Made by a program: the position numbers and the translations under genes. DNA of 64,000 nt from an uncultured Candidatus Saccharibacteria bacterium (lineage in GTDB: Bacteria; Patescibacteriota; Minisyncoccia; Phycocordibacterales; UBA9973): positions 980 to 64,979 of the forward strand of contig CAYYSG010000002.1 in the NCBI GenBank assembly GCA_964474375.1, written 5' to 3'. Below, piece after piece: positions 177 through 64,000 of the stretch. The notes below the pieces were generated by a model. That model saw only the letters and a program-made list of their open reading frames with translations. It was not told where the DNA came from and ran no database searches. Numbering within the stretch: position 1 is the stretch's first letter; each line of letters starts with the position of its first letter.

Positions 177-207
177 GCACCGCATATAATATATACGCGG
201 TGTTTTG
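177..207 (+). terminator. intrinsic terminator hairpin (caccgcatataatatatacgcggtg) + T-run, from an upstream gene outside window
   Basis: Inverted repeat followed by ttttgtttt, read directly. Confidence 0.4.
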
Positions 208-209
208 TT

Positions 210-572
210 TTGGGTTATAATATAGTTATGACAATATATAACTTACCCGATGATTTAACTACTGGGCATTGCGTCCCATGTGAAGGCGGAACCGCGCCAC
301 TGACAAAAGACGAGTCCACTGCCCTGTTAGTTAAAATTCCAAAATGGAATTTATCTATAGACTCGCATTCTATAAATCGCGAATTTAAATTTGCTGACTT
401 TAAAACAGCGCTGGAGTTTGTAAACAAAGTTGGCATCGCTGCTGAAATTGAAGGCCACCACCCTGATATAGAACTAGGTTGGGGCCGTGTACACATTACC
501 CTGTCCACCCACACTATTGGCGGACTGTCCGTAAACGACTTTATACTGGCAGCGAAGATAGATAAGATATAA
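210..572 (+). CDS. pterin-4a-carbinolamine dehydratase (PCD/DCoH family)
   Basis: 120 aa; diagnostic EGHHPD motif and family-typical length; -10-like tataat just upstream. Confidence 0.8.
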   Translation: MGYNIVMTIYNLPDDLTTGHCVPCEGGTAPLTKDESTALLVKIPKWNLSIDSHSINREFKFADFKTALEFVNKVGIAAEIEGHHPDIELGWGRVHITLSTHTIGGLSVNDFILAAKIDKI

Positions 573-14889: not shown

Positions 14890-17800
14890 TTATTTTTTTA
14901 GATTAACAGATATCTCCATTTCACCAATTTTTACGATATCTATTTCAAGATTATTTAAGAATTCATATTCAGTTGCTGAAACTTCTTCTAGTAATTTATC
15001 TTTCCAAGAATTAACAAAATCCTGGGCAACATCACCGGCCATGAATTCGATTTTTATTAACTCTTTTGGTTTTAGTCCCATTAGTTTGCGTTTGTCCATA
15101 ATGACGCGGACTAATTCTCTAAAATTACCTTCGGACTTTAGTTCTTCTGTTAGCTCGGTATCCAGATGGATTTCCTTGCCTAGAGCTACAGACCGCACGT
15201 TAAGCTCGTCACACAAAATAGCAACATAATCTTCCGGTATTGGTTTGTTAACTGTTAAACTTTTCAAAGGCTGACGTACTGGGATATTTTTTTCCTTGCG
15301 CAGTGAATGTCCTATTGTTACAAATTCTTTTACTGTGTCCATGGTCTCAATAACTAGGTCAGATTCAGGGATGCTTATTTCTTTTGGCCATGATGAAAGA
15401 TGCACACTGGAAACATCATCTTTGGTTTTTAATTCTTGCCATAATTCTTCCGCAATAAACGGAGCCATTGGTGCGAATAATTGCGAAAGATTTTTCAAAA
15501 CGAAATACAAAGTCTGAAGAGATAAAGTATTACCGTTACGAATTAGATCACGCGAGCGTCTTAAATACCAAGTAGAAAGATCGTCCACGAAGTCACGGAT
15601 ATTTCTGGCAGGTACGAACAATGAATAATTATCCAATGATTCAGTGTTGGATTTTATCAAATTATTTAATTTAGCTAATATCCAAATGTCTAACGGGTTT
15701 TTTGATATTTTGTTTTCTTTGTAGTTCAGCTCATCTTCCCTGACTCTATATAGTTCATAGAAAGAATAGACATTGCGAACAAGGTTAAAGACTTTTTTGT
15801 TTACTTCGTCTACAGTTTTTTCGTCAAAGTTTTTACTGTCACCTGGCTGGTTAACTCCGTACATCCAGAAGCGCAATGTGTCCGCGCCGTATTTTTCAAA
15901 CATATCCCATGGTGATACAACGTTACCTTTGGATTTACTCATTTTTTGACCTTCTTTGTCTAAAATATGCCCCAAACAAATTACATTTTTATAGGCTTCT
16001 TTCCTGCCCAAAAGAGCCGACACAGCATGCAGTGTATAAAACCAACCACGTGTTTGGTCTACAGCTTCACATATAAAATCAGCTGGGAAATAAGTTTTGT
16101 CAGTTTGAAAAGGATATCCGTCTTGAGCAAACGGCATAGCTCCCGAGTCAAACCAAACATCCATGACTTCTTTTACACGTGTTAGTTTATTACCATCATT
16201 ATCATACACTGGGTATTCATCGAGATAAGGACGATGTAAATCCAGCTCGTATTCTTCATTATGAGGCAAAGGAGTAAAATCGATTTTTGTATGAGCACCA
16301 TTTAAAAGAGATTTCTTCAGATCTTCATTTGTATGTCTCCATTCCAAAGATTCTTCTTTGGTTAGACCTTTTGAAATAGATTCCAACATCCAAACACCTA
16401 CACCATGTGTAATTATTAGAATATTTTTATTTTTCAGATTACTATCCAGATCGTAAATAAAATTACCAAATCTGCTTCGGATATCGCTCATGGATTCGCC
16501 ACCCGGAGCTGGGCTCATAAAATGGTTTTTATAATCAACTGCAAAATCCCAATATTCACTCCATTTTTTACCGTTAAATGTACCCATGAAGACTTCGGCG
16601 ATTCTGTCGTCTGTGATTACGCTAGTGGCCGGCATACCTAATGAGTCAGCTATAATTTTTGCAGTTTCTTGTGTCCTAAGGAATGGTGATACATAAATCA
16701 AATCAAACTTTTGTTCTTTAAGAGTTTCTAGTGCCTGGTTGATTTGTTTTATACCTTCGGGGGTTAGAGAGTCATCGTCGTCTTCTTTGGAAGACGCGAT
16801 CCGGTCTTCTAGATTAGCCATCGTTTGACCATGACGCATAACCGTATATGTGTTACCAGACTTTTGAGTATGGTTTTTTAGTTCATCCCGATTTGAAAAA
16901 ATGTATCTTTTGCCAGATTCATCTTCCCATACTGGTAGTGGTGTACCCCAGTAGCGTTCGCGGGATATTGCCCAGTCTTTGACTTCACGAATCCATTCAC
17001 CGAACCGGCCTTGGCCAATATGGTTTGGTTCCCAATTTATGAAATCGTTATTCATTACTAATTCATCGCGCAATTGACTCATACGGATATACCAAGAATC
17101 CCGCGCGTAATAAATAAGCGGAGTAGAACAACGCCAACAATGCGGGTAACTGTGTTCGTATTTTTCTTTTTTAAATAAAAGACTGCCGGACTTTCTGTTA
17201 GCTAAATCTTTGATTATATCGATTGCTACTTCTTCGTCTTTTACAAACCTGTTAGACAAGAAATCTAGATTGTCCAAAAAAGAACCGGCTTCATTTACTA
17301 AATGGTATTTAGGTAGGCCTAGTTTGTTACCTAGGTCAAAGTCGTCCTGTCCATACATGACAGCCGTATGAACAACCCCTGTACCATCAACCGCTGTTAC
17401 GAAATCCGCTGGATACATTTTAAAAGCCTTTTCTTTTGATTCAACATAAGCTGGCAAATCATTGATACTGTCTTTTAAAAATGGATATAGTGGTTCATAC
17501 GTAAGACCAACTAGCTTCCCGCCGGCAATTTCCTCTTGCACTGAATATTCACCTTCTAGGATACTGAGTCTGTCTTTTGCCAAAATAAAATATTCGCCAT
17601 TTAAAGCTACTTTTACATATGTCATTTCGGGGTTCACAGCCAAAGCCACATTGCCGGGTAATGTCCACGGTGTTGTAGTCCATGCTAATACAAAAGTATT
17701 TTCTTCACCTACTAATTTAAATTTTGCAGTGACAGACAGATCTTTGACATCTTTGTACCCTTGAGCTAATTCGTGTGATGACAAGGCCGTACCACACCTA

Positions 17801-18345
17801 GCGCACCATGGGACAATACGATAATCTTTATACAATAAATCCTTCTTTTCTACTTCACCAAGAATACTCCACAGTGATTCAATGTATTCTGATTTGTAAG
17901 TTATATAAGGATTTTTCAAATCAACCCAATAAGCACTGCGGTTTGTGAACTTTTCCCATTCGTCGATATAAGTCCAGACGCTTTCACGACATTTTTTATT
18001 GAATTTATCTATTCCGTATTCTTCAATTTGTTTTTTGGAAGTTAGACCCAGTTCTTTTTCAACTTGCAGTTCCACTGGCAAGCCATGTGTATCCCAGCCA
18101 CCTTTGCGGCGAACATGATAGCCTTGCATGGTTTTATAACGCGGAATAGCATCTTTAAAAGCCCGCGCCTCTAGATGGTGAATACCAGGTCGTCCATTAG
18201 CTGTTGGCGGTCCATCATAAAACACGAATTCGCCATTCGGTGAATCCTTCTCTAAAGATTTTTCAAAAATATTATTCTTTTTCCAGAACTCTATTATGTC
18301 TAATTCTTTTTCATTATTTGTTTTGTTTTGCTTTTTTTCTTCCAT
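14890..18345 (-). CDS. ileS: isoleucyl-tRNA synthetase carrying an inserted histidine-phosphatase (PGAM-like) domain
   Basis: DGPPTANG, WCARCGTAL, TTTPWTLP, WAISRERYWGTPLP, KMSKSKGNV; residues about 497-697 show RHGQT...SPFLRTQETA...ITHG His-phosphatase motifs. Confidence 0.85.
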   Translation of the reverse strand: MEEKKQNKTNNEKELDIIEFWKKNNIFEKSLEKDSPNGEFVFYDGPPTANGRPGIHHLEARAFKDAIPRYKTMQGYHVRRKGGWDTHGLPVELQVEKELGLTSKKQIEEYGIDKFNKKCRESVWTYIDEWEKFTNRSAYWVDLKNPYITYKSEYIESLWSILGEVEKKDLLYKDYRIVPWCARCGTALSSHELAQGYKDVKDLSVTAKFKLVGEENTFVLAWTTTPWTLPGNVALAVNPEMTYVKVALNGEYFILAKDRLSILEGEYSVQEEIAGGKLVGLTYEPLYPFLKDSINDLPAYVESKEKAFKMYPADFVTAVDGTGVVHTAVMYGQDDFDLGNKLGLPKYHLVNEAGSFLDNLDFLSNRFVKDEEVAIDIIKDLANRKSGSLLFKKEKYEHSYPHCWRCSTPLIYYARDSWYIRMSQLRDELVMNNDFINWEPNHIGQGRFGEWIREVKDWAISRERYWGTPLPVWEDESGKRYIFSNRDELKNHTQKSGNTYTVMRHGQTMANLEDRIASSKEDDDDSLTPEGIKQINQALETLKEQKFDLIYVSPFLRTQETAKIIADSLGMPATSVITDDRIAEVFMGTFNGKKWSEYWDFAVDYKNHFMSPAPGGESMSDIRSRFGNFIYDLDSNLKNKNILIITHGVGVWMLESISKGLTKEESLEWRHTNEDLKKSLLNGAHTKIDFTPLPHNEEYELDLHRPYLDEYPVYDNDGNKLTRVKEVMDVWFDSGAMPFAQDGYPFQTDKTYFPADFICEAVDQTRGWFYTLHAVSALLGRKEAYKNVICLGHILDKEGQKMSKSKGNVVSPWDMFEKYGADTLRFWMYGVNQPGDSKNFDEKTVDEVNKKVFNLVRNVYSFYELYRVREDELNYKENKISKNPLDIWILAKLNNLIKSNTESLDNYSLFVPARNIRDFVDDLSTWYLRRSRDLIRNGNTLSLQTLYFVLKNLSQLFAPMAPFIAEELWQELKTKDDVSSVHLSSWPKEISIPESDLVIETMDTVKEFVTIGHSLRKEKNIPVRQPLKSLTVNKPIPEDYVAILCDELNVRSVALGKEIHLDTELTEELKSEGNFRELVRVIMDKRKLMGLKPKELIKIEFMAGDVAQDFVNSWKDKLLEEVSATEYEFLNNLEIDIVKIGEMEISVNLKK

Positions 18346-36271: not shown

Positions 36272-36697
36272 TTATTTCTTAGCATCAGCTTTCGGGCGTT
36301 TTGCACCGTACTTACTACGCTCTTTACGACGCTTGTCGACACCACTTGCATCAAGTCTTCCACGTACTATGTGATAACGTACACCGATAAGGTCTTTAAC
36401 ACGACCACCACGAATCATTACGACTGAGTGTTCTTGTAAGTTGTGACCCATACCTGGAATATAAGCTGTAACTTCCATACCATTAGTAAGACGCACACGA
36501 GCAATCTTACGAACAGCTGAGTTAGGCTTTTTAGGAGTTGTAGTAGTAACTTTTGTACATACCCCACGCTTAAATGGTGAAGGGTAAAATACTGGACGGT
36601 TATGAAGCTGGTTGAACCCACGTGCTAGAGCAACAGCCTTTGATTTCTTAACCACCTTTTTTCGGCCCTTGCGGACCAATTGATTTACTGTTGGCAT
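36272..36697 (-). CDS. rpsL: 30S ribosomal protein S12 (true start MPTVNQL; ORF-track N-terminal extension rejected)
   Basis: [11 protein letters not shown]...PKKPNSA conserved S12. Confidence 0.95.
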
Positions 36698-36832
36698 TAT
36701 TCTAAATGTACTTTTACAAGCCAGATATCTCAAGTAAACGTACGCTACTATTAAAATCCCGCAAGCGGGACTTGTAGAGACAAAATAACATAATAACCCA
36801 CAAAACGCAAGAGTGGGCACCCTTGCGTAATA

Positions 36833-43688: not shown

Positions 43689-43711
43689 AAACCGCGATTA
43701 ATCGCGGTTTT
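43689..43711. terminator. bidirectional terminator aaaaccgcgattaatcgcggtttt
   Basis: Perfect palindrome between convergent dcd and pilus genes. Confidence 0.6.
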
Positions 43712-44099
43712 ATCTTGTAACAGGTGTTTTAGTTTCAGTATCAACCACTGGTGGGACTACTACTCTGTTCTTCGAAGGATCCGGAACAGCAGGTTTGTTT
43801 TTTATTATATCAGCGCGGACAGCGGACCTTTCTTCAAACTTGGTAAATATTTCATTTAGCTTGTTTTCATTTAACTCAACCACAACTAATGATTTGACCT
43901 TTTCCTTGCTTTCATTAGTCACAAAGAAATCCCTGTTTGCCAAATAATAAACAGTAAAAGAAGCTATCGCTGTAAAAATAAGTACGACCAACATTAGAAT
44001 CAAAATTCTTTTCCAGTAGAAAAACGGGTCTATTTCAGATACTTTGCGTAAATTTATAGACTTGGTTTTTTTATTTTTTTTAAATAAATTCAATTTCAT
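43710..44099 (-). CDS. pilus-assembly-associated membrane protein (PilP/PilO-like, uncertain)
   Basis: N-terminal TM; position directly after pilO-like gene. Confidence 0.35.
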   Translation of the reverse strand: MKLNLFKKNKKTKSINLRKVSEIDPFFYWKRILILMLVVLIFTAIASFTVYYLANRDFFVTNESKEKVKSLVVVELNENKLNEIFTKFEERSAVRADIIKNKPAVPDPSKNRVVVPPVVDTETKTPVTR

Positions 44100-44103
44100 A
44101 GTT

Positions 44104-44715
44104 TTATTTTATATTAGTCTCAATTAAAACTTTTGTTCCTAGCATCCATGTTTTATTACTAACAGTAGACGAATCATCATTGTATGAAATATCACGATAA
44201 GTCACCTCGCCCCCTAGCCTATTCGGCTGGATTATTACGACTTCACGCAAATAATATTCTTCGGTCGTCATTATATAGTCAGCATTTTCGAACATTTTCA
44301 TCAGGTTCAGCAATGACCCAAATGAGCCATTGGCTGTAATTTCAATAGATAGGCTGCGCCCAGATGATGTATCACCTTCTTTTGTTTCATTTAGTGAAAT
44401 TGAATTAACAACAATGTTTACTCCTACATCTTCGGCGTATTCTTCTATTTTACTAACTATAAATGGTATTTCGTCTTGGGACTTAATAACATGCACTCCT
44501 AATGACTGAATTCTTTCAATGTTATCCAAGAAAACGCTTTTAGAGCGAATCGTGTTCTCTCTTTCTTTGTGCATATTTTGCACTGACTCAAACAAAACAA
44601 AAGAATTAGAGCTATAACTTTTCAACGTCCGAAGCATAAAGTAAACTGCAAACAATGTTATTAAAAACAATAACACAGCCATGATCAAACGTGATGTAAA
44701 ACGACCCTTCTTCAT
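44104..44715 (-). CDS. pilO: type IV pilus assembly protein PilO-like
   Basis: N-terminal TM + periplasmic domain; operon context pilM-pilN. Confidence 0.5.
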   Translation of the reverse strand: MKKGRFTSRLIMAVLLFLITLFAVYFMLRTLKSYSSNSFVLFESVQNMHKERENTIRSKSVFLDNIERIQSLGVHVIKSQDEIPFIVSKIEEYAEDVGVNIVVNSISLNETKEGDTSSGRSLSIEITANGSFGSLLNLMKMFENADYIMTTEEYYLREVVIIQPNRLGGEVTYRDISYNDDSSTVSNKTWMLGTKVLIETNIK

Positions 44716-44716
44716 A

Positions 44717-45277
44717 CTACAATTCGCAAGTTATATTAAATGGTACTTCGACTCTGCGGGCATAGGTAGTAACCGGCACATTTACACTAGCGCACATTCC
44801 ACCATTTTTATTTTCCAAACTACTACCAAAATTAATTATCGAGTCACGTGTTCCTGAAATACCGGAAATGAGTAGTATCTTTTTACCTTCTTTATTATTA
44901 GTCATATGGAATTTACTGATTCGTAAGTCAGTTGGTCTTACTGCTACGATTTGTTCAATGCTCTTGGTATGTTCTTTGGCAGATTTGAAATTATTTTGAA
45001 ACATTGAAATAGCACTATTAGCAGACCTAATTTGGTTAACCATTAAACCAGCTTCACCATTTTGGGCAGCTGCTTCGAGCTCGATGTATTCTGAATTTAT
45101 TAAATTAGCTTCGGTGTATTTTACATAAGAAAGAACACCTAGCACAAAAACCAAAGGCAAGATAACAACGGACACTGATATAAACCCCACCACAAAAAGT
45201 CGTCTTTTGTATAAAGATTTTAATGAAACTCTTTTTTCGTAGGGTAATAAATTTATCATATTATGTTTCAAATGCAC
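44717..45277 (-). CDS. pilN: type IV pilus assembly protein PilN
   Basis: LLPYEKRVSLKSLYKRR then TM (PilN N-terminal signature). Confidence 0.6.
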   Translation of the reverse strand: MHLKHNMINLLPYEKRVSLKSLYKRRLFVVGFISVSVVILPLVFVLGVLSYVKYTEANLINSEYIELEAAAQNGEAGLMVNQIRSANSAISMFQNNFKSAKEHTKSIEQIVAVRPTDLRISKFHMTNNKEGKKILLISGISGTRDSIINFGSSLENKNGGMCASVNVPVTTYARRVEVPFNITCEL

Positions 45278-46340
45278 CTAATGCGAGTCCAATAGCTGTT
45301 CCATAAATAACAGAATCATCAAAATGTATTTTTGGTACACGAGCAGAAACCGCTTCTATTCGTGTCCATACGTCAGCTAACATTGCTGGTTTATGAAAAG
45401 TAGCCTGGAATAAATCAATGAACCCAGGAGTCAATGATTCGGTTCCGACTATTTGTACAGAATCTATTGGACGGTATGTATCACTACGTTCTTTTATATA
45501 AGTACTCCATGAATTATATTGTTTTATTATTTCATCAAACAAAGGAATATAAGCTTGACCCAAGACTTCAGCCATTCCTGCGTATTCGCCAGTCGCATTC
45601 ATACCTATTTTATGTTTTATCTCTTCGGCTTTCTTTGCATCGATATTTAGTTTTGTAGCCACAGCTGTGGTTACTTCTTCACCTCCACGCATAATAGTCC
45701 GAGATGACACAACAAGACCATCCTGAACAACACTAGCAGTAGTCGAAGCATGACCAATATCGATGATAAATATAACTGCAGTATCTTTAGGTTTAGTAAC
45801 AGCGCGTGCTAAAGCCTGACATTCATATTCACACGACACGACTTCCATACCAGCTAACATACATGCTTCTACATAGCCCTCGACTACATTACGCTCAACA
45901 GCGGCTACTTGGACCTTGGCTTTGTCATTGTCGTGAGAAATAACATCATAGTCAAATTCTACGGTATCAGCTGGTACCGGAATAAATCCTTCGAGTAGTA
46001 GCAATATACTGTCCCGTAAATCAACTCCTGGAACAAGATCGACTTCGGTTTGAAAAGTATAAACCTGTTCTTCAGGTATAGAAATACGTACTGATTCTAT
46101 TTTCTTAGTACGGCGCATTGTTTCAAGTACTGGTACTAGTTTCGTAGTATCCTGGACTACGCCTTTGCCGACAGCACCAACGGGAATATGCTCAAGCCCA
46201 TAATTCTCGACTACTATACCTTCACTTCCTTCACGCATTTCTACATATTTAACTGTACGCTCAGAAATTTCCAAACCAAAAGAAGGCATCACAATATAGC
46301 GAGGTATTGGGAAAAATTGGAAAATTTTTGAACGTGCCAT
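45261..46340 (-). CDS. pilM: type IV pilus assembly ATPase-fold protein PilM
   Basis: Actin-like fold, FGLEISERTVKYVEM N-terminus. Confidence 0.65.
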   Translation of the reverse strand: MARSKIFQFFPIPRYIVMPSFGLEISERTVKYVEMREGSEGIVVENYGLEHIPVGAVGKGVVQDTTKLVPVLETMRRTKKIESVRISIPEEQVYTFQTEVDLVPGVDLRDSILLLLEGFIPVPADTVEFDYDVISHDNDKAKVQVAAVERNVVEGYVEACMLAGMEVVSCEYECQALARAVTKPKDTAVIFIIDIGHASTTASVVQDGLVVSSRTIMRGGEEVTTAVATKLNIDAKKAEEIKHKIGMNATGEYAGMAEVLGQAYIPLFDEIIKQYNSWSTYIKERSDTYRPIDSVQIVGTESLTPGFIDLFQATFHKPAMLADVWTRIEAVSARVPKIHFDDSVIYGTAIGLALGAFET

Positions 46341-54807: not shown

Positions 54808-57800
54808 TTAAAGTTTTGGTGAATCAGGATTTTGCTCAAAAGGCACAAGTTCCGGATTTGCTAAATTAAGTTCAGGACACATTATTTCGTTTATTTTTTT
54901 AGTTGTGGTTAGGTATACAATTCCTGTTGGAGAATTTAGTTTCCAAGGAGTTAAGATAGAATCTTTGTGCATCCATTGGAACTTTTTAACTTCGGCATCA
55001 GTCAGTGTTCCAAAGAATCCTGTAATTGGTAGATTTGATTTCAGATAATCATTTAAGAATTTTTGAATTTTCTTTACAGACTCAGGATCATTTTTGTAAC
55101 CTTTACGTAAGAATTTGTCTAAATATATTCCACAAGTTGTTGATTCACCTAATACTTGACCTGTTGTTACTGGTGCTGAGAAATTACCCAAAAATGCTAT
55201 TGGTACTGAACCTCCTCCGCCGCCATTATTGGTTGGTGGATTTTGAGGAGGATTATTGTCCTCTTCATCGTCTTCGTCTTCTGGTTCTTCCGGTTGTTCT
55301 GGTTGTTCTGGCAAAGCATTGACTGTTATGTTTCTAATAACTGCTACTGCTGGTAAAGCCCCTGAATCTATATAGTTATAGGTAACTTGATAATTCCCAG
55401 GTACATTAGTGTCTACAGTTCCAGTTATATTAGTGACTGGTAAGTTATTACCGTCTTCTGTGTCGTTAGCTACTGCACCTAGCTCACTGTAAGCGTCGCC
55501 TACATTTAAAATAATAGAAGCATCACCATTTAGAACAATAACGGGTACATTATTAACTGGTGCTTCTGGTTCAGGTTCTTCGTCAACAGGTGTACATTCT
55601 TCATAGTTTACAGTTAGTTTGTATGCAAGACCTGCGGGATTAGTCTGTGGAGTAGAGCCGGCCAATGCCCAGTTTTTAACAGAGAAAGACAGAATGTTCG
55701 TACCGTTTATTAAGTCAGTGTCAGGTATATTATATGTATCTATTGCACCAAAATTGTTTTCAGTACTATCACCAATAGTTGTAAATGTATTGAGACTACC
55801 GCTGTATGAATTATCCACTAAAACTTCAAGCACTGCGGATAATGGTGTGCCTGGAATTGTGAATGATTTTGCAAAGTTCACAAATTCGTCCTGAGTAGGA
55901 TTACTTACCCCATCAACATTCCAGATCCAATTTGCTCCACTTATACTACTCCAGCCTGTGTGAATAAATGACAGGATAGATGTAGTACCAGAATCAACAG
56001 AGTCATTAGTATCACTAACAACAGTCATAGTTTTTTCAGTACAAACTTGTGGCGGATTTTCTGGCTCAGGTTCTGGGTTGTTACATTTTGTATTATGAAC
56101 TATTACATGTACGTCCCCATCCACCACAATAGGATCCAGTGTTGGTGTTATAGATGCAGATACAGCTTCTTCGTAAGTTTTACCTACAGAATATCCAACT
56201 AATGCGTATGGTTTGTATTGATCAGTGTGAAAAGGTTTTAGTTCACCACAACTAGCACCAACAGTAGCGGTTGCTAATTCTTCATTTAATTCATAAACAG
56301 ACCCGCCTGGTAGAACTAAAGTAGATGCTTGGTACGGGACGTCGCCTTCTCTGTGTCCATCATTGTCTAGGTTGAACCACAAAGCTTCGGTTATAGAATA
56401 AATTGGGAAATGTATACTAGTAGTCATTAAAGATGTTGCTTTTACACCATCTATAAATTTAGAAACCCTGACTCTCCCCGGTTCTTTTGTGCTAATTATT
56501 TGATTCACGATAGTAAATGTTTCGTTTTGAGAATCTATTTGAACATCACCTAGTCCGGAAACATTTTCCCAGCCTTCTTGCATTATTTCATCAACAGCAT
56601 ATGTTCCATAAGGTACATTTTCGAAACTAACACAGCCATTCTCACCGGTTACACCAGCATAGCCTTTATTAATATCAACAGTTAGACTACCTGAATTATC
56701 ACCAAACCAGCCTTCGTTTTGAGTAGTACCACTACCGTCAAATATACGTAGATTTGCTGGACCATCAATAGGCGCAATTATTGAACGCGCATAGTTATGC
56801 AAACTATTATATGGACCCCAGACAGAATCTGGGTCAAAGCTATTGTTGATTTGTAGTTCCAATATGTCTGTTTGGTAGCCAGTATAGCCATCCATTTGAG
56901 TTGCCCAAGAATCAGTAGTTGAGTATTCAGTGTCTACTGGATTAGCACCACCTTGGTTTAGCCATGTACCAGCTGATTTAAAAATATAGGATAGTCCAGA
57001 AAGTAGTAAATTAGTGTTAACACCAGATGAGATATTCGTAGGAACATTTAGACCTGACTGCACAGATTCACCTTTGAGCATAACAGTCCAACCGGATAAA
57101 TTGTTTTGATTTTGATCCACCTTACAAACATTCACTGTGGAAGTTTCCGGGACACAAGCCCCGTTAACTTTGTGCATTCCATTAGGTACACCGAGCTGCT
57201 CGCCTTCTATATTAGGGCAAGAGTCAATTTCATAGTTAAAAGCTACACAGTGAACAGTGTCTGATTTTGTAGGTTGTTCTATGTAATCATAGTTATCATA
57301 ATTCAAAACATCGTTTTGACAATATAGTTCTGCTGAATATTTTGATTCAGTAGAATCCATATCATCAACCCCAGTAAGGGCACCAGAAAAACCTAAGTAA
57401 TATGGGCTTACCTTTTCACGAATCCAAAGAGGTTCTTGTCCTGTTACTTCAGTAGAAGTAACACCATTGTTCATAGTTGCCCCAAAAGTAGTCCAGCCAC
57501 TGCCACCGGTTTCAAGATTATCACCAGGATTAGCAGCAGTATAAAGAGCCCACTCAAAACTAAAGTCCGATGCTAAATAACATCCAGGATGAGAATTTAC
57601 CCAGTCAGTTGCTGTAGTGCTAGTTATATCAGGTCCACCATTACCCCAGTTAGGCAGGTCGCTTTCATGAGTACAAACAACTTTGGTCATAACAATAGTT
57701 GTTTTTATTTCTTCAGGAACTTCTATTGCTATTTGATCGCCTGTTACATTAACTTCATCAAATTTAACTTCATCGTTTTCTGCATCTAAATTAGCCAAAA

Positions 57801-58281
57801 ATCTTATACCAAAATTAGGATTATTTGATGCACCTTCAGGTAAAATTTGTGATACATTATTCCATCCATCATTTTGCTCTGAATTTGTATCATTAGAATT
57901 ATCAATAGTAAAAAAAGTAACCCAATTAGAACCATCTAAGGTATATTCAGTTTTTACGGTATCTGAGCTATCTAGACTACCTCCAGCTTTATACCAAAAA
58001 GACACTGAGATGTTTTCAAAACCTGTGGTGTCAATGTTAGTCTTTTTTAAAACAGAATCCTCTACCTCACCCTTTACACGAGCAGACTTTGAACCGGAAT
58101 ACGCTGTATTACTAGAAGCCCATTTTGAGCCAACTGGCGTCGACCATGATGAAAAACCAGTCTCAAAACCATCACTAAATAAATCTGTAGCCGCTGAGAT
58201 ATTGGAAATTATTCCAAACACAAGCATACCAAGTATACCTGTAAATAAACCGAACTTTATGAACTTTTGCATAATAATCAA
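54808..58281 (-). CDS. 1157-aa secreted surface protein: N-terminal CBM/LamG-like domain, DUF5011 Ig-like domain, P/E-rich linker, C-terminal PG_binding_1-like domain
   Basis: Signal peptide; IVLNGDASIILNVGDAYSELGAVANDTEDG...VTYNYIDSGA (DUF5011); PEQPEQPEEPEDEDDEED linker; KKIQKFLNDYL...GFFGTLTDAEVKKFQ (PG-binding). Confidence 0.7.
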   Translation of the reverse strand: MIIMQKFIKFGLFTGILGMLVFGIISNISAATDLFSDGFETGFSSWSTPVGSKWASSNTAYSGSKSARVKGEVEDSVLKKTNIDTTGFENISVSFWYKAGGSLDSSDTVKTEYTLDGSNWVTFFTIDNSNDTNSEQNDGWNNVSQILPEGASNNPNFGIRFLANLDAENDEVKFDEVNVTGDQIAIEVPEEIKTTIVMTKVVCTHESDLPNWGNGGPDITSTTATDWVNSHPGCYLASDFSFEWALYTAANPGDNLETGGSGWTTFGATMNNGVTSTEVTGQEPLWIREKVSPYYLGFSGALTGVDDMDSTESKYSAELYCQNDVLNYDNYDYIEQPTKSDTVHCVAFNYEIDSCPNIEGEQLGVPNGMHKVNGACVPETSTVNVCKVDQNQNNLSGWTVMLKGESVQSGLNVPTNISSGVNTNLLLSGLSYIFKSAGTWLNQGGANPVDTEYSTTDSWATQMDGYTGYQTDILELQINNSFDPDSVWGPYNSLHNYARSIIAPIDGPANLRIFDGSGTTQNEGWFGDNSGSLTVDINKGYAGVTGENGCVSFENVPYGTYAVDEIMQEGWENVSGLGDVQIDSQNETFTIVNQIISTKEPGRVRVSKFIDGVKATSLMTTSIHFPIYSITEALWFNLDNDGHREGDVPYQASTLVLPGGSVYELNEELATATVGASCGELKPFHTDQYKPYALVGYSVGKTYEEAVSASITPTLDPIVVDGDVHVIVHNTKCNNPEPEPENPPQVCTEKTMTVVSDTNDSVDSGTTSILSFIHTGWSSISGANWIWNVDGVSNPTQDEFVNFAKSFTIPGTPLSAVLEVLVDNSYSGSLNTFTTIGDSTENNFGAIDTYNIPDTDLINGTNILSFSVKNWALAGSTPQTNPAGLAYKLTVNYEECTPVDEEPEPEAPVNNVPVIVLNGDASIILNVGDAYSELGAVANDTEDGNNLPVTNITGTVDTNVPGNYQVTYNYIDSGALPAVAVIRNITVNALPEQPEQPEEPEDEDDEEDNNPPQNPPTNNGGGGGSVPIAFLGNFSAPVTTGQVLGESTTCGIYLDKFLRKGYKNDPESVKKIQKFLNDYLKSNLPITGFFGTLTDAEVKKFQWMHKDSILTPWKLNSPTGIVYLTTTKKINEIMCPELNLANPELVPFEQNPDSPKL

Positions 58282-58391: not shown

Positions 58392-58697
58392 TTATAAGAT
58401 TTCAAAGACTATATTTAAATGATCCCCCTGGAAAACACCCTCTTTTTTGCGGATTTGTTTTTTTATAGATAATAAATATATTTCCTGAGTTTTGTACGGG
58501 AAAAGGGCTGTAGTCCAAATGCTTTTTCCAATACTTGCTTTTATTTTTATAAACCCCGCACCGTAAATCTTATTTTTATATTTTTGTTTTATTTCTGAAG
58601 ACGTCTTTTTGTCCAGCCCTACAAAATGCCACCCTGCATCCCCGGGCCACACAAAAACCTTACCTTTTATTTTATGTATTTTATTTTTGAGATTCAT
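58392..58697 (-). CDS. DUF1905-domain protein
   Basis: GDAGWHFVGLDKKTSSEIK pattern. Confidence 0.5.
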   Translation of the reverse strand: MNLKNKIHKIKGKVFVWPGDAGWHFVGLDKKTSSEIKQKYKNKIYGAGFIKIKASIGKSIWTTALFPYKTQEIYLLSIKKQIRKKEGVFQGDHLNIVFEIL

Positions 58698-59967
58698 CTC
58701 CCGAAGTATTTTGGTTTATATTTCTAAAATACCTATAAGTCTTGCGTATGTTATCGAGTATATGATGTCCAAATAGGTAATGTAGTATTAATTCTAGAAT
58801 AACCAAACCTAACAATATAAATGCAATATACAGTCCAAATTTCTTAAATAACTGCATGAATGAATATCCAGGATACAAATCCACATAAGATTCTGTAACA
58901 TTACCAGCATTATCATATGCTCGAACAATAACCCGGGTGGAGTCTGTGTTATCCATAGGCACAAGATATGGGGATTCTGTTTCCACAAAAACAGGTGAAG
59001 CTGAGCCTATTGAATTTTTATTAATTACACCAACTTCATAATGCGATACTCCGGACATTGTATCTGTCGTAAAGAAAGATGCCATGTATTTTTTCATACC
59101 ATTTTCATCTTTGAATGAATTAGCGCCTATTTTAAAACTGGCTGGAGGCAAGGTATCTATACGCACAGCAAAATGTGAAGTCGCACCCCAAACACCCTTA
59201 GAAAATGATTTTACATGCAAATATGTAATTCCATCTTTGACTGCTTCATAAAAAACAGAAGCATCTTTATGAGTAATAGTACTGGCAGGTATAGTTCCGG
59301 CTGTATTATCAAGAAAAACACTAAACCCTGTTATGTCAGCATTTTTATCCCAAGAAAATATCGGGCTATTATTGTTATACCAGCTATCCTGTGAAGGATG
59401 TGTTTCAGAATATATGTTTACTCCATCTGGTGCACGGTTTACCAAATTATAAGTAGCACCGGATTTTGCTAACAAAACCTCGGAACCAAGTCCATCATTT
59501 AAATTAGCGCTAGAATTATCGCTTATTGTGACTCTGGTTGTACCAGACGATAGAACTTTAAACGTAATAGTGATTATCAACCCAGAGCTAGTTACAATAC
59601 CAGGACTAGGAACAACTCCAGCTAAAGATGCGGTTCCCTTTCTATTGTCGTATTTGGGTGGTTCTACCCATATACCAAATATAGATTTTCCGCCTGATGG
59701 ATTAACAATAGATAATTTCGCAGGGTCAAAATTAATTTTTAAATCAATAGCATTTATATTACTACCTTTGGTGTCTATATATATAGGAGCTTCAAATGTT
59801 GAACCAACTAAAAATGTAGCATTTCTTGGAGATATAAATATTTCTGACTTAGCTAAAAGATTCTGGGCGTTTATATTTATAGATTCTTGTGCAAATACAA
59901 AAACAGGCGCTAGTGTAAAAACTAGAATCAAATAAATTGCTGACATTTTTTTTACTAAAAAATTCAT
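58681..59967 (-). CDS. cohesin-like domain + Ig/FN3-like domain, C-terminal TM-anchored surface protein
   Basis: Signal peptide, VGSTFEAPIYIDTKGSNINAIDLKINFDPAKLSIVN cohesin-like beta-sandwich, C-terminal TM + short cytoplasmic tail. Confidence 0.55.
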   Translation of the reverse strand: MNFLVKKMSAIYLILVFTLAPVFVFAQESININAQNLLAKSEIFISPRNATFLVGSTFEAPIYIDTKGSNINAIDLKINFDPAKLSIVNPSGGKSIFGIWVEPPKYDNRKGTASLAGVVPSPGIVTSSGLIITITFKVLSSGTTRVTISDNSSANLNDGLGSEVLLAKSGATYNLVNRAPDGVNIYSETHPSQDSWYNNNSPIFSWDKNADITGFSVFLDNTAGTIPASTITHKDASVFYEAVKDGITYLHVKSFSKGVWGATSHFAVRIDTLPPASFKIGANSFKDENGMKKYMASFFTTDTMSGVSHYEVGVINKNSIGSASPVFVETESPYLVPMDNTDSTRVIVRAYDNAGNVTESYVDLYPGYSFMQLFKKFGLYIAFILLGLVILELILHYLFGHHILDNIRKTYRYFRNINQNTSGDESQK

Positions 59968-60857
59968 TACATTTTTTCGATATCGTCTATCTTATCCATT
60001 ATAACTTTTTCTGCGTCATATATATCGCTCTCTATTGCACTACCATGCTTTTCTTTTATATCTTCTTTTAGAATAGCAAAACTTTTTCTAGCAATTCTCT
60101 TTGTTTCTTCTAGTTTTTGGTCAACCTTGTATCTGTAACGTAAATAGATATAAAGTAAAGAGAAAATTAAAAATACCCAGATAAATAATAGTAATATTGA
60201 GCCTGTATCAAATTTATGTATATAAGAATAGAACACAGTTTGGGTGGCAGGATTTTCACTAATATCGGTTTTTGGTGTTACGGCTTCTTTTATTATGTCT
60301 TTTATTTCTTTTGGCTCTGGTTTTGTAGGCGTAGTAACTTCAGCTGCCGGAGCAATATTAAAACTAGCTTCGTTCATGCTTTTCAAAGTATTAGTCCCAG
60401 CACCATCATTGGCCAACACACTACCTGATATAAAATTGACTATACCTATACCCGTAGACTTAGCCCTAAAAGTCAGATTCACTACAGTTGCACCACTACC
60501 AGTGTACCCACCTAGCGTAACACCTTCGAAAGATGCAGTCCCAGCCGTATTAGAAAAAGTTGGCTCTTGTGCCCACAGGCTGATAATAGAACCTGCTTTT
60601 GAAATAGAAACCAGAGACAAATTATCCTGAGTAAAACGCAGACGTGACGAAACTGCATTTATTGACTCATTTGGGCTAACGACCAGTAATTTGACTACTA
60701 TTGCATCTCCAACGTTATAGCTTCCCCCTTCTGGTGTAAGTAATAAATTAGAAGCAGAAACACTACTCGCACTAATTAAAAATGTAGCAAAAGCTAAAAA
60801 TATTACTTTATTTAATTTTAAAAATTTTATTTTTAGCATTTTTTTTAAATACGACAA
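59967..60857 (-). CDS. cohesin-like domain, C-terminal TM-anchored surface protein
   Basis: Signal peptide, VGDAIVVKLLVVSPNESINAVSSRLRFTQDNLSLVSI, C-terminal TM and charged tail. Confidence 0.55.
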   Translation of the reverse strand: MSYLKKMLKIKFLKLNKVIFLAFATFLISASSVSASNLLLTPEGGSYNVGDAIVVKLLVVSPNESINAVSSRLRFTQDNLSLVSISKAGSIISLWAQEPTFSNTAGTASFEGVTLGGYTGSGATVVNLTFRAKSTGIGIVNFISGSVLANDGAGTNTLKSMNEASFNIAPAAEVTTPTKPEPKEIKDIIKEAVTPKTDISENPATQTVFYSYIHKFDTGSILLLFIWVFLIFSLLYIYLRYRYKVDQKLEETKRIARKSFAILKEDIKEKHGSAIESDIYDAEKVIMDKIDDIEKM

Positions 60858-61671
60858 TTACTACTGCAATTAGGATCAAAAATATAAACAAATAGACCCT
60901 AGGAATATCTGAATTAAACAAAGTATGAATTTCTTCATTGTCAGCAAAATCGACAGCTTTTATTTTAACAAAAATATTTTTATTAGATTCTAAACTATAT
61001 GGACTGTCGATTCGAATCCATTCACCTTTTGATTTAATATAGACGCCCTTAATACCTGTTTCTTTGTCTATCGCATTAAATATTATAACATTCTCACCAT
61101 TATATAGTAATTCATCTTTGACTATTTTTACTTCAAGAGTTGGCTTATTTGCATCGTTGATTTCAAATCTTTTATCTTTTATTTGTGAATTTATTTGAAC
61201 AACCGCACTAACACTATTTGGTTTAATTAATGTACCCATACCATCATTCCTTGCTACTTCGACATTATTAAAAGTTATTATTGCCGTTCCTTGTTTTTTA
61301 GGTATAAAAAAAGCTCTTCCAATATTACCCCTGTTTAGTAAACTAGGCTCATTTAAAAATCCTGAAAAACCATTTGGGGTTACACCAGCTATTTGAAACG
61401 AACCTTTGTCTATTATTTTTGAACTAATCCAGTGTGTAATAATAGACTGGCTATTATCAAAACGACTGAATTCTAGAATATCTTCATCAAAATTTAAATT
61501 TGATTCTATTGCATTAATACTGGCACCTTCTGTGTTTATATAAATATCTACATAAAATTCTTCGGAAATAGAAACATTGTTTGAATTTGGAACAAGAAGA
61601 ACAACCTCGGCATTAGCAAAGCCATAAAAACTTAGGAAACAAATGAGTAAAACAAATATAAATCTTTTCAT
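60808..61671 (-). CDS. cohesin-like domain, C-terminal TM-anchored surface protein
   Basis: Signal peptide, ISEEFYVDIYINTEGASINAIESNLNFDEDILEF, C-terminal TM. Confidence 0.55.
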   Translation of the reverse strand: MKRFIFVLLICFLSFYGFANAEVVLLVPNSNNVSISEEFYVDIYINTEGASINAIESNLNFDEDILEFSRFDNSQSIITHWISSKIIDKGSFQIAGVTPNGFSGFLNEPSLLNRGNIGRAFFIPKKQGTAIITFNNVEVARNDGMGTLIKPNSVSAVVQINSQIKDKRFEINDANKPTLEVKIVKDELLYNGENVIIFNAIDKETGIKGVYIKSKGEWIRIDSPYSLESNKNIFVKIKAVDFADNEEIHTLFNSDIPRVYLFIFLILIAVVIVVFKKNAKNKIFKIK

Positions 61672-61675
61672 AAAA

Positions 61676-63007
61676 TTATCCGGTCCAGTTATAAGCCATT
61701 ATAGAGAAGTCGACAATACTAATAATTCCATCGTTATTCAAATCAATATTAGCTGGTGGATTTGATTTCTTATACCAATAAGCCATTATAGAAAAGTCGA
61801 CTAGGTTAACTTTGCCGTCACAGTTTAAGTCGCCTCGTAAACTAGAACAAGTAGTAGCTTCTTTTTTCTTAGTCTCGGTTCCAACATTAAACCCGACAGT
61901 ATTCCCGAATGGTGAAACTTCGGTGTTTATTGCTGATTTTGATTTAGCAGTATGCGAACCAATTTCAAGAGGAGCTGTATCAAAATTCAAAAGATATACT
62001 CCGTCTTTATCTGTACTAACTTTATTAAAAAATTCTTGTTCGGAATGTACCGAAATTGTAATTTCGCTCTCAGGAACACTTTGTCCAAAGATAGCCACAT
62101 TCTCACCTTGTTTAACAACTGACTTATCTACATCAATTGTTGGTGAAAGAAATATTCCACCAATATTAATAGTTGCATTCTCGGTCACATAAACAGGAAA
62201 AGAAAATGCTGTTGATTTTCGAAAGGTTGAATCTTCACCATATACAGAAAAAGTATAATTACCGTTAGATAATGCACTGACAGCTACGGAGAAGTTAGCC
62301 AAAGGGTCAGCAATGGTCGTAGCAACTATAGTACCATCTTTCAGAATTGTGACTTTTGATGAAGGATAAGCTCTTCCTGATAAATTTATATTACCAGAAC
62401 CAGTTGTATCAGTACTACCGGTGGTACCAGTAAAGCCACCACCGCCACCTCCTCCTCCGCCAGTAGTAGCGGGGGGTGAACCAGCTGGGGTACCAGAAAC
62501 AACAACGGAATCACTAACTATTAACCCTGATACGTAGCTTCGTACTTTGAAATAATACGTTGTTCCATTGCTCAAAGATGAAAATGTATTATTAAGAGAA
62601 ACCCCAACGTTAGTATAAGTAAACGGACCACTGGAATTAGTACTAATTCCAACCTCATAGCTAGTTACATTACCTAAAGTCCCAACAGAAGCCGTCCAAG
62701 AAACTAGGACATTTTGATTACCAGCAGTAGTCGAAACTACTGGAGTTGTAGCTATCGGAAAATATAAGAAACCAGCATTTTTATCAAAACTAGTAGACGA
62801 AGATTCCCCGCTTTCAAGTTGTCCCGATGAAGATATATATTGAAAACTAGTACTACTAGATATTCCACCTTCTGCAATACCAATAAGAGGGTTTTCTATT
62901 TGAAAATTAGTACTACTCATATATTGTGCATGAGCAAAGGAAAACAAAAAACCCATTATGATTAAGATTGTAGAAATAGTTAAAATGCTTTTTACAAATC
63001 TTTTCAT
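61676..63007 (-). CDS. secreted FN3 + Gly-linker + beta-sandwich + C-terminal type-I dockerin protein
   Basis: Signal peptide; FN3 (TYYFKVRSY); poly-Gly; tandem Ca-binding repeats GDLNCDGKVNLVDFSIMAYWY / DLNNDGIISIVDFSIMAYNW. Confidence 0.7.
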   Translation of the reverse strand: MKRFVKSILTISTILIIMGFLFSFAHAQYMSSTNFQIENPLIGIAEGGISSSTSFQYISSSGQLESGESSSTSFDKNAGFLYFPIATTPVVSTTAGNQNVLVSWTASVGTLGNVTSYEVGISTNSSGPFTYTNVGVSLNNTFSSLSNGTTYYFKVRSYVSGLIVSDSVVVSGTPAGSPPATTGGGGGGGGGFTGTTGSTDTTGSGNINLSGRAYPSSKVTILKDGTIVATTIADPLANFSVAVSALSNGNYTFSVYGEDSTFRKSTAFSFPVYVTENATINIGGIFLSPTIDVDKSVVKQGENVAIFGQSVPESEITISVHSEQEFFNKVSTDKDGVYLLNFDTAPLEIGSHTAKSKSAINTEVSPFGNTVGFNVGTETKKKEATTCSSLRGDLNCDGKVNLVDFSIMAYWYKKSNPPANIDLNNDGIISIVDFSIMAYNWTG

Positions 63008-63043: not shown

Positions 63044-63433
63044 CTAGTTAGTAGCTGGTGCTGCTTCTCCAATATTTAGTGGTGCAACTTCAATGATTTT
63101 ATTCATTTCAACACTATAAAGGATAGCTTTTCTTGACTGAGCAAAAATTAGAACCTTGTCACCTTGTTTTGCATTAGCAAAAAATGGTTGTGATTTAAGA
63201 GCTTCTACATCTGATACTGTAGCTACTGTTGGTGTTTCCCCTTCAGGCAGTACTACTAGTTTTGAAACTTTTGCAACAAGAGTGTTTACTTCTTTTCTTG
63301 CTTGAGCGTTAGGGTCTTGTTTCAATGTGTAAAGTTCATAATAAAAGTAACCAGCAGCTGCTATGGCTAAAATTGCAATTACTGTAGCAATTTTTGAACT
63401 CATAGGTTTTTTTGTTGTTTCTACGTTATCCAT
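63044..63433 (-). CDS. hypothetical single-TM protein
   Basis: 129 aa, N-terminal TM. Confidence 0.45.
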   Translation of the reverse strand: MDNVETTKKPMSSKIATVIAILAIAAAGYFYYELYTLKQDPNAQARKEVNTLVAKVSKLVVLPEGETPTVATVSDVEALKSQPFFANAKQGDKVLIFAQSRKAILYSVEMNKIIEVAPLNIGEAAPATN

Positions 63434-63560: not shown

Positions 63561-64000
63561 TTAAATTATAAACAAGTGGCCTTTTATTAGATTAACAAAC
63601 AAAGCAAATATTTTTATATCACTTATATTGTAACCCAGGTCATCACCACCGCCGCCTTGGCCGCCGCCGCCTTGGCCGCCAGTACCACCACCTGATTCAA
63701 CATCTCCTTCTCCACCACCTTCATCACCGCCACCTACCTCATCATCAGGAGTAGCTGATGACTCAACAGAACCACCTCCGCCGCCTACCGTATAATTCAC
63801 AAGAGACCAACCACTATTCCCCGAAACAAGAGTACTCATAAATGCATAGAATGTTGCTCCACCTGTAGCGATACTATCCCTAATTGATAAATAATAACTG
63901 ACTAAATTACCGCTGGCTTTTGATAGCGTCCAGGTACTTGTGTCGACTGTACTTTTTAAAGTAATCACTGAACTTCCACCACTACCATTAACATCCCAAT
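63561..64000 (-). CDS. C-terminal part of a Gly-rich secreted protein; ORF open to window edge
   Basis: Gly/Gln/Asp repeats GGQGGGGQGGGG; no stop before window end on the 5' side. Confidence 0.35.
   Translation of the reverse strand, partial: WDVNGSGGSSVITLKSTVDTSTWTLSKASGNLVSYYLSIRDSIATGGATFYAFMSTLVSGNSGWSLVNYTVGGGGGSVESSATPDDEVGGGDEGGGEGDVESGGGTGGQGGGGQGGGGDDLGYNISDIKIFALFVNLIKGHLFII

Follow-up and report, generated by a model that had tools for sequence, protein, structure and literature searches.

A probable non-cellulosomal cohesin-dockerin cassette for surface display, widespread in Patescibacteria

Cohesin-dockerin pairs are known almost exclusively as the connectors that hold cellulosomes together, and their many occurrences elsewhere have, to our knowledge, no assigned role. 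What might such a pair do in the candidate phyla radiation (CPR, or Patescibacteria), a group of presumably host-attached bacteria? The question is raised by a 64,000-nucleotide (nt) stretch of DNA from a genome labelled as an uncultured Candidatus Saccharibacteria bacterium (contig CAYYSG010000002.1, positions 980 to 64,979), called the window hereafter. Near one end, four consecutive open reading frames (ORFs) on the minus strand encode three cohesin proteins, P1, P2, and P3, and one dockerin protein, P4. A preliminary description of the sequence had taken them for a cell-surface cohesin-dockerin scaffold that might serve in attachment to host cells. Pfam matches, protein folds, and a gene coupling that extends across the CPR uphold this view as far as the identity and architecture of the modules are concerned, and we propose that the four genes probably constitute a surface-display cassette, widespread in the CPR and distinct from cellulosomes.

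The cohesin of P1 is recognized directly, since the protein scores 46 bits against Pfam Cohesin (PF00963; cut-off, 24.1) and matches the solved ScaC cohesin (PDB 4uyp) with an E value of 4.6e-5. The N-terminal domains of P1, P2, and P3 are paralogous (BLASTP E = 3e-15, 3e-10, and 7e-13), and a hidden Markov model (HMM) of the cohesin domain matched P1 (1.8e-35), P2, and P3 (5.3e-26) and nothing else in the window. Within the P2 family, 18 of the 40 aligned members individually match Pfam Cohesin, and a profile of the full-length family gave marginal cohesin matches in the PDB (E ~0.02) amid noise from transmembrane (TM) helices. Each of the three proteins has a hydrophobic, signal-like segment at its N terminus and a hydrophobic helix toward its C terminus. 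P2 additionally shows a Pro/Thr/Lys-rich linker between its domains and a charged cytoplasmic tail of ~57 amino acids (aa) after them.

We chose P3 for AlphaFold2 modeling because it was the weakest and most divergent of the cohesin candidates. The model, with a mean predicted local distance difference test score (pLDDT) of 88.3, contains a beta-sandwich of 9 to 10 strands at residues 23 to 161, corresponding to the nine-stranded jelly roll of cohesins; P1 and P2 were assigned to the fold via homology. When the model was compared to the PDB with Foldseek, the 26 best matches were all cohesins, with template-modeling scores (TM-scores) of 0.63 to 0.83 normalized to the target. They include CaCohA2 (6kgf; E = 2.9e-9) and OlpC (4dh2). 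Against non-cellulosomal cohesins, the model reached a TM-score of 0.81 with that of A. fulgidus (2xdh) and of 0.83, at a root mean square deviation of 2.8 A, with that of C. perfringens (2vo8).

P4 is built, from the N to the C terminus, of a signal peptide, a conserved segment that we call the STNF module, an FN3 domain, a Gly linker, two immunoglobulin (Ig)-like domains, and a dockerin at the exact C terminus. The last of these reads DLNCDGKVNLVD.../DLNNDGIISIVD..., two repeats that are identical at 13 of 22 positions and both have an intact Ca2+ loop (D1-N3-D5-G6-D12); their similarity would be compatible with a dual binding mode. P4 scores 28.5 bits against Pfam Dockerin_1 (PF00404; cut-off, 22.9), and its C terminus matches the solved dockerin 2y3n_B (phmmer E = 1.4e-5). 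In the AlphaFold2 model of P4 (mean pLDDT, 78), the dockerin forms two loop-helix units, the helices of which (residues 402 to 410 and 431 to 442) have a pLDDT of ~84 to 90. Foldseek retrieved only tandem FN3 arrays with the full-length model, which confirmed the stalk and added no independent match to a dockerin fold. Of the stalk domains, one Ig-like domain passes Pfam Big_6 (30.8 bits; cut-off, 27.6), and the FN3 domain, slightly under the Pfam cut-off for fn3, is modeled as an FN3-type sandwich. Pfam, the model, and Foldseek revealed neither a catalytic domain nor a carbohydrate-binding module (CBM) in P4. The topology is complementary: the cohesins are carried by TM proteins, and the dockerin is carried by a secreted protein that has no other anchor.

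These results agree with the preliminary description, which had postulated three genes that each encode a signal peptide, a cohesin, and a C-terminal TM anchor, followed by a gene for a secreted FN3 protein that ends in a duplicated dockerin. The cohesins are supported by Pfam for P1, by family matches for P2, and by the fold for P3, and P4 is supported by its Dockerin_1 score, its two Ca2+ loops, and the modeled FN3 domain. As counterevidence, the description had named a lack of Pfam Cohesin matches together with non-cohesin folds, or a C-terminal repeat devoid of dockerin geometry. We found a clear Pfam match in P1, a cohesin fold in the P3 model, and a dockerin with both loop-helix units in P4.

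We then asked how far the gene arrangement extends. A scan for relatives of P2, made on one genome per species with an alignment of 15 sequences, identified them in 171 species genomes; we fetched 80 of the loci. A word-indexed homolog search with P3 returned P3 itself and nothing else; its orthologs were recovered from the fetched loci with HMMs. The informative labels all belonged to Patescibacteria (Paceibacterota and Nomura-, Kaiser-, Vogel-, Magasanik-, Falkow-, Komeili-, and Portnoybacteria), to which the carriers of P2 relatives apparently all belong, and Ca. Microsyncoccus archaeolyticus, a parasite of archaea that is grown in enrichment culture, has the cassette as well (locus L061). 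Among 105 database homologs of P2, informative lineage names were of the CPR/Parcubacteria type, save one labeled Bacteroidota. P4 is far more conserved than the cohesin proteins and has at least 1561 homologs, the top 120 of which are full-length and 48 to 93% identical.

Almost every locus contains two cohesin-TM genes in tandem, first a short one (~290 aa, the P3 ortholog) and then a long one (~480 to 600 aa), in which a P2-like cohesin is joined to P1-like Ig domains. In some lineages, that of the window included, the P2 class and the P1 class are separate genes; the P1 class is restricted to a subset of loci, and P3-class orthologs are present behind the dockerin gene in nearly all. The preliminary description had suggested a search for its gene arrangement in related genomes, and the search was positive: of the 71 loci that could be assessed, 67 have a P4 homolog 0 to 150 bp upstream of the tandem pair on the same strand, and all of these homologs terminate in GDLNxDGxVNLVDFSIxAYWYK...DLNxDGKVxLVDFSIMAYYWTG. 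Three of the four exceptions are slightly displaced or cut by a contig end, and a dockerin gene lies within ~3 kb in 70 of the 71 loci. A dockerin HMM found essentially one dockerin ORF per ~20-kb locus, always as the neighbor of the cohesin pair. The same order recurs on an unrelated metagenome contig, where a gene for a minimal STNF-dockerin protein of 167 aa stands between a small TM gene and genes for cohesin-TM proteins of 294 and 676 aa. Judged from these gene orders, the adjacency of cohesin and dockerin genes is not due to chance.

Six of the loci (L025, L026, L053, L056, L068, and L081), together with many Saccharibacteria-labeled ones, come from metagenome-assembled genomes (MAGs) labeled "uncultured Gammaproteobacteria bacterium" or "Candidatus Saccharibacteria." The cassette that they carry is otherwise typical of Paceibacteria/ABY1, and both labels are probably taxonomic artifacts of bulk MAG submissions.

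The distal part of P4 proved informative about what the cassette might display. The STNF module is among the most conserved segments of the P4 family alignment and is disordered in the monomer model (pLDDT <50). It is related to a component of the Pam pilus of CPR bacteria, which is composed of the pilins PamA/B/E, the tip PamT, the chaperones PamC/D, and the anchor PamR (bioRxiv 10.64898/2026.03.03.709456). Without the signal peptide (residues 22 to 92), the module matches NCBIfam PamT with an E value of 9.5e-8 and 31.7 bits, against a cut-off of 240; full-length P4 scores 25.1 bits against this equivalog (NF058579), which stands for proteins with a truncated Ig-like pilin domain. Only model positions 21 to 78 of 241 are covered, and P4 carries no Pam pilin C-domain. 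By these scores, the relation is one of local homology to the N-terminal module and not PamT membership. An exhaustive phmmer search found the STNF module in 185 representative proteins, always directly behind the signal peptide, and 95 of the best 150 also bear a P4-type dockerin. The architectures include signal peptide-STNF-dockerin (160 to 190 aa), STNF-FN3-dockerin, STNF-(FN3)-dockerin with a TM tail, STNF-Pam-pilin-C (PamT-like), and STNF-FN3-large ectodomain-TM, and the module is joined to a dockerin, to a TM helix, or to a Pam pilin C-domain. The head of P4 is itself swapped between lineages and consists of STNF plus FN3, of a Cys-rich repeat (myxo_disulf_rpt, 37 bits in locus L045), or of other domains; the parts that stay constant across P4 homologs are the Gly linker, both Ig domains, and the dockerin. 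A head that varies at the distal end of an unchanging stalk and anchor is the arrangement to be expected of a display system.

We propose the following model for the cassette. P1, P2, and P3 would be exported by Sec and held in the cytoplasmic membrane via their C-terminal TM helix with the cohesin outside, each presenting one cohesin on a stalk of differing length. P4 would be secreted without an anchor of its own, and its dockerin would bind Ca2+ and plug into one or more of the membrane cohesins, which would create a non-covalent tether. Tethered in this manner, P4 would project its N-terminal head away from the cell on the FN3/Ig stalk. The STNF head probably folds only upon partner binding, by beta-strand addition, and the partner might be a host surface or another filament subunit. 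We thus infer a physical cohesin-dockerin binding, a partner choice among P1 to P3, a dependence on Ca2+, and a biological role in adhesion or in connection with pili. Most likely, the cassette holds a pilus-tip-like module on the cell surface via a cellulosome-type connector, unrelated to cellulose digestion.

Several observations weigh against this proposal. P2 and P3 have no Pfam Cohesin match of their own. Two to three different cohesin proteins are found per single nearby dockerin protein. Two loci (L057:9872-11428 and L079:9992-11764) have a lone long cohesin-TM gene with full upstream flanks and neither a short cohesin gene nor a dockerin neighbor within 10 kb. The invariant residues of the cohesin family cut both ways. 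Over 177 cohesin domains, N53/A54, S76/W81/P85, G96/G101, and an N-D-G-x-G-T motif after strand 8 are invariant, and in the P3 model they fall on strands 3, 5, 6, and 8. Type I cohesins bind dockerins via the sheet of strands 8-3-6-5, and a position of the invariant residues on this face, derived solely from secondary structure, would speak for the proposal. The invariant N-D-G-x-G-T, W, and P motifs are not classic signatures of cohesins, which speaks against it.

Such motifs leave room for a reading in which the modules are co-located and do not bind each other, the dockerin being a Ca2+-stabilized, EF-hand-like terminus and the cohesins binding a glycan, the cell wall, or a host protein. 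The atypical NDGxGT, W81, and P85 would fit this reading, as would the weak Pfam EF-hand matches that overlap the dockerin of P4. However, the genes are coupled in a near-obligate manner over a very wide phylogenetic span, minimal STNF-dockerin proteins included; no part of P4 is more conserved than the dockerin, which is near-invariant across the family and always at the exact C terminus; and all solved precedents of this pair of folds are binding partners, the matches of the P3 model being largely cohesin-dockerin complexes. We therefore consider a lack of mutual binding improbable. Still harder to defend is a minimal cellulosome-like enzyme scaffold for polysaccharide degradation, to which we give almost no credence. 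The cohesin and dockerin modules are indeed of the cellulosomal type I kind, but there is one cohesin per protein and no multi-cohesin scaffoldin with a CBM, P4 lacks catalytic and CBM domains and is the single dockerin ORF of the window, a scan of 38 window proteins revealed no glycoside hydrolase, and the hosts are CPR bacteria with small genomes. The statement of the preliminary description that the locus is not a cellulosome is thus confirmed.

The relation of P4 to PamT calls for the comparison of two other explanations. The Pam chaperones and anchor have a signal peptide, beta-sandwiches, and a C-terminal TM helix (bioRxiv 10.64898/2026.03.03.709456). P1 to P3 share this gross architecture of PamC/PamD/PamR, and this, with the weak PamT match of P4, could mean that they are membrane-anchored PapD/FimC-like chaperones of the Pam type or a PamR-like anchor in a divergent Pam operon that works by donor-strand exchange. 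Yet PapD/FimC chaperones are absent from the top 50 PDB matches of the P3 model, which cohesins lead throughout the first 26; P1 to P3 have no NCBIfam Pam match at E values up to 1; and Pfam Cohesin is significant for P1 and many family members. The cohesin fold and the absence of NCBIfam Pam matches essentially refute a Pam-chaperone identity, which we regard as very improbable. The other explanation extends our proposal and does not contradict it. Here, the cassette would anchor a filament in the membrane or serve as its adaptor, the STNF module would insert by beta-strand complementation into a Pam-type pilin or a giant upstream protein, and the dockerin-cohesin pair would replace the TM helix of PamR. 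The homology of STNF to the N-terminal part of PamT-like proteins, its conservation despite disorder in the monomer model, as in donor strands, and its pairing with one or another of the three partners listed above all speak for it, and PamR has a matching outline of an N-terminal strand, FnIII domains, and a TM helix (bioRxiv 10.64898/2026.03.03.709456). In 8 loci, Pam pilin genes immediately precede the cassette on its strand (jackhmmer and hhalign), distant PamT-like proteins are encoded near the cassette in 2 further loci, and a 353-aa protein encoded ~3 kb upstream in locus L030 passes the NCBIfam model "Pam pilus system pilin subunit" (76.9 bits; cut-off, 55). A very large protein is encoded upstream of the cassette, beyond a small gene, in 18 of 29 loci with a long-form (STNF-bearing) P4. 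On the other hand, the window yielded no Pam pilin, PamT, or Pam chaperone, Pam-like genes occur within 10 kb in only ~10 of 78 loci, and the Pam-pilin loci carry a short-form P4 with a Cys-rich head and without the STNF module. Furthermore, PamT is the distal tip and not the base in the Pam model (bioRxiv 10.64898/2026.03.03.709456), which favors a tip module displayed on the cell over an anchor. An anchoring function is thus rather unlikely in our view. Only tentatively do we advance that the Paceibacteria/ABY1-type CPR bacteria of our sample might use cohesin-dockerin docking to attach a filament system to the membrane, with STNF as the strand-complementation element that would couple a Pam-type pilus or the giant upstream protein to the P4 stalk. 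If true, bacteria that live attached to other cells would have a modular and non-covalent means of anchoring in place of sortase or a TM helix.

Features of the probable surface-display cassette and its upstream neighbors in the window
Feature	Residues	Coordinates	Strand	Remarks
P1		58681-59967	minus	428 aa, cohesin-TM protein
P1 cohesin	39-177	59437-59853	minus	Pfam, PDB 4uyp; two Ig-like domains also in P1
P1 TM	377-399	58771-58839	minus	
P2		59967-60857	minus	296 aa, cohesin-TM protein; likely start 60839
P2 cohesin	31-171	60345-60767	minus	family HMM
P2 TM	218-239	60141-60206	minus	
P3		60808-61671	minus	287 aa, short cohesin-TM protein
P3 cohesin	20-162	61186-61614	minus	AlphaFold2 model, Foldseek
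P3 second small beta-domain	178-253		minus	AlphaFold2 model
P3 TM helix	258-286	60814-60900	minus	AlphaFold2 model
P4		61676-63007	minus	443 aa, secreted dockerin protein
P4 dockerin module	389-443	61679-61843	minus	two Ca2+-loop + helix repeats
P4 stalk		61880-62758	minus	FN3 (84-175), Gly-rich linker, Ig-like (205-286, Big_6), Ig-like (290-376)
P4 STNF module	26-86	62750-62932	minus	~60 aa, conserved N-terminal segment
Small protein		63044-63433	minus	129 aa, N-terminal TM segment; accessory to long-form (STNF-bearing) P4 genes
C-terminal end of large upstream protein		63561-64000	minus	Gly-rich, "DLGY," hydrophobic tail; cut by window edge

The ORF list of the window contains P1 to P4 at the coordinates given in the preliminary description, the one difference being the start of P2, which public gene calls place at an ATG at 60839 (290 aa). 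The four genes abut or overlap, with a gap of 4 nt between P4 and P3 and overlaps of 32 to 50 nt between P3 and P2 and of 1 nt between P2 and P1, which indicates co-transcription. The best sigma-70-like site on the minus strand (11/12; 63506-63479) is located upstream of the 129-aa gene. As promoter-like and terminator counts in the region were at chance level in our scan, this site is only a hint.

The 129-aa protein has no family match in Pfam or NCBIfam. In 24 of 64 loci, the gene directly upstream of P4 encodes a small TM protein of 129 to 134 aa, and nearly all of these loci have a P4 with the STNF plus FN3 head. The ORF at the window edge has no start codon inside the window. It shares a Gly-rich stretch, a "DLGY" motif, and a hydrophobic tail with the giant proteins of loci L002, L004, L005, L036, and L078, of which that of L002 (L002:1-7221; >4465 aa, PATR repeats) occupies the same position, and the large protein is possibly associated with the cassette. 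Two other families recur upstream of short-form P4 genes, one of ~254 aa with a signal peptide, a beta-domain, and a C-terminal hydrophobic segment (L083:1108-1863; 30 loci) and one of ~172 aa (L020:6850-7368; 16 loci). The 254-, 172-, and 134-aa families gave no significant match in Pfam or NCBIfam. In profile-profile comparisons, the 254-aa and 134-aa families showed no relation to Pam pilins, and the 172-aa family gave an ambiguous local match (hhalign probability, 40 to 59%). Proteins of ~255 aa that join a cohesin-like domain and a C-terminal dockerin-like module in one polypeptide are encoded in two loci (L045:12438-13205 and L072:5179-5940), downstream of the long cohesin gene and with a Pam pilin gene directly before the cohesin genes; it is possible that they serve as adaptors.

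On the other side of the cassette, a Pfam scan recovered the same-strand genes for a 1157-aa PG_binding_1 protein and a DUF1905 protein, as the preliminary description had reported. The former (54808-58281, minus strand) is secreted and has Bact_surface_Ig-like domains and a C-terminal PG_binding_1 domain; secreted proteins with peptidoglycan-binding domains were reported to be highly expressed in archaea-parasitizing Paceibacteria (PMC10936435). The DUF1905, 1157-aa, and CAP genes are syntenic in close relatives only, and an ABC transporter is inserted among them in locus L002, so we do not count them as conserved parts of the cassette. The description had also assumed a pilus-bearing organism. 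The window indeed contains a PilM gene (PF11104; 45261-46340), which is followed by three small ORFs without Pfam match (all within 43710-46340, minus strand); they probably form a type IV pilus assembly subcomplex, and the organism therefore has type IV pilus genes. Two further genes of the window are unusual. The isoleucyl-tRNA synthetase (1151 aa; 14890-18345, minus strand) has a histidine-phosphatase domain of the ribazole-phosphatase/phosphoglycerate-mutase-like type inserted at residues ~500 to 670, between the synthetase halves. Ribosomal protein S12 (182 aa; 36272-36820, minus strand) has its Pfam domain from residue 77 and, unless the start codon is miscalled, an N-terminal extension of ~76 aa.

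The identities of the modules are no novelty, since some NCBI records already use the name "dockerin type I domain-containing protein" for homologs of P4. What is new is the conserved operon of membrane cohesins and a dedicated dockerin, its variable head, and its connection to PamT and Pam pilins. We found no description of such a cassette in the literature on cohesin or dockerin with CPR, Patescibacteria, or Parcubacteria, and neither the Pam preprint (bioRxiv 10.64898/2026.03.03.709456) nor the PMX.50 paper (PMC10936435) mentions cohesins or dockerins. Present as a compact linked operon in no fewer than 171 species genomes from a vast radiation with few cultured members, the cassette offers a concrete, testable model of how wall-bearing bacteria without an outer membrane might display surface modules. 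The common N-terminal module and the gene adjacency tie this model to the newly discovered Pam pilus, and the link to CPR pili is an attractive possibility. Experiments are feasible, since the cassette is present in the enrichment-cultured Ca. M. archaeolyticus. For protein engineering, the cassette is a natural source of a minimal, orthogonal cohesin-dockerin pair.

Among known systems, a loose precedent is SEML1_0315 of the Saccharibacterium Southlakia epibionticum, a dockerin-annotated, Ig-rich envelope protein needed for growth on the host (PMC10633639). It resembles P4 by description only, being encoded by a standalone gene (927 aa) between a tRNA and a hydrolase with no cohesin neighbors listed, and we rejected it as an ortholog of the cassette because its neighborhood is unrelated. 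With the Pam system, P4 shares an N-terminal module homologous to that of PamT-like proteins, and its outline of an N-terminal strand, FnIII domains, and a membrane tether recalls PamR. The cassette differs from this system in that P1 to P3 are cohesins and not PapD-like chaperones and in that P4, at 25 to 32 bits, is far from the PamT cut-off of 240. The best TM-scores to the P3 model (0.81 to 0.83) are those of the non-cellulosomal cohesins of A. fulgidus (2xdh) and C. perfringens (2vo8 and 2jh2), modules that work outside cellulose degradation, as those of the cassette would. These cohesins are part of soluble or enzyme/toxin-associated multidomain proteins, unlike those of the cassette, and in no such case is there a conserved operon of TM-anchored single cohesins and a dedicated non-enzymatic dockerin protein.

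The comparison with the cellulosome itself shows both shared features and differences. In contrast to cellulosomes, the cassette comprises no enzymes, CBM, or multi-cohesin scaffoldin, is anchored via a C-terminal TM helix and not via surface-layer homology (SLH) domains or sortase, and has two to three paralogous cohesin genes per adjacent dockerin gene. Positions 10 and 11 of the P4 dockerin are hydrophobic (LV/IV), whereas Ser-Thr is typical of cellulosomal type I dockerins, and the cassette cohesins differ from type I pairs in their family-specific invariant motifs and their CPR hosts. The beta-sandwich fold of the cohesins is nevertheless the same as in OlpC-Doc435 of C. thermocellum (4dh2) and CohA2-Doc0917 of C. 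acetobutylicum (6kgf), and P4 has the duplicated D-x-N-x-D-G...D loops, each with a helix, of cellulosomal type I dockerins. In layout, the cassette resembles the single-cohesin anchors of cellulosomal bacteria, in which a cell-bound cohesin captures a secreted, dockerin-tagged partner, as P1 to P3 would capture P4.

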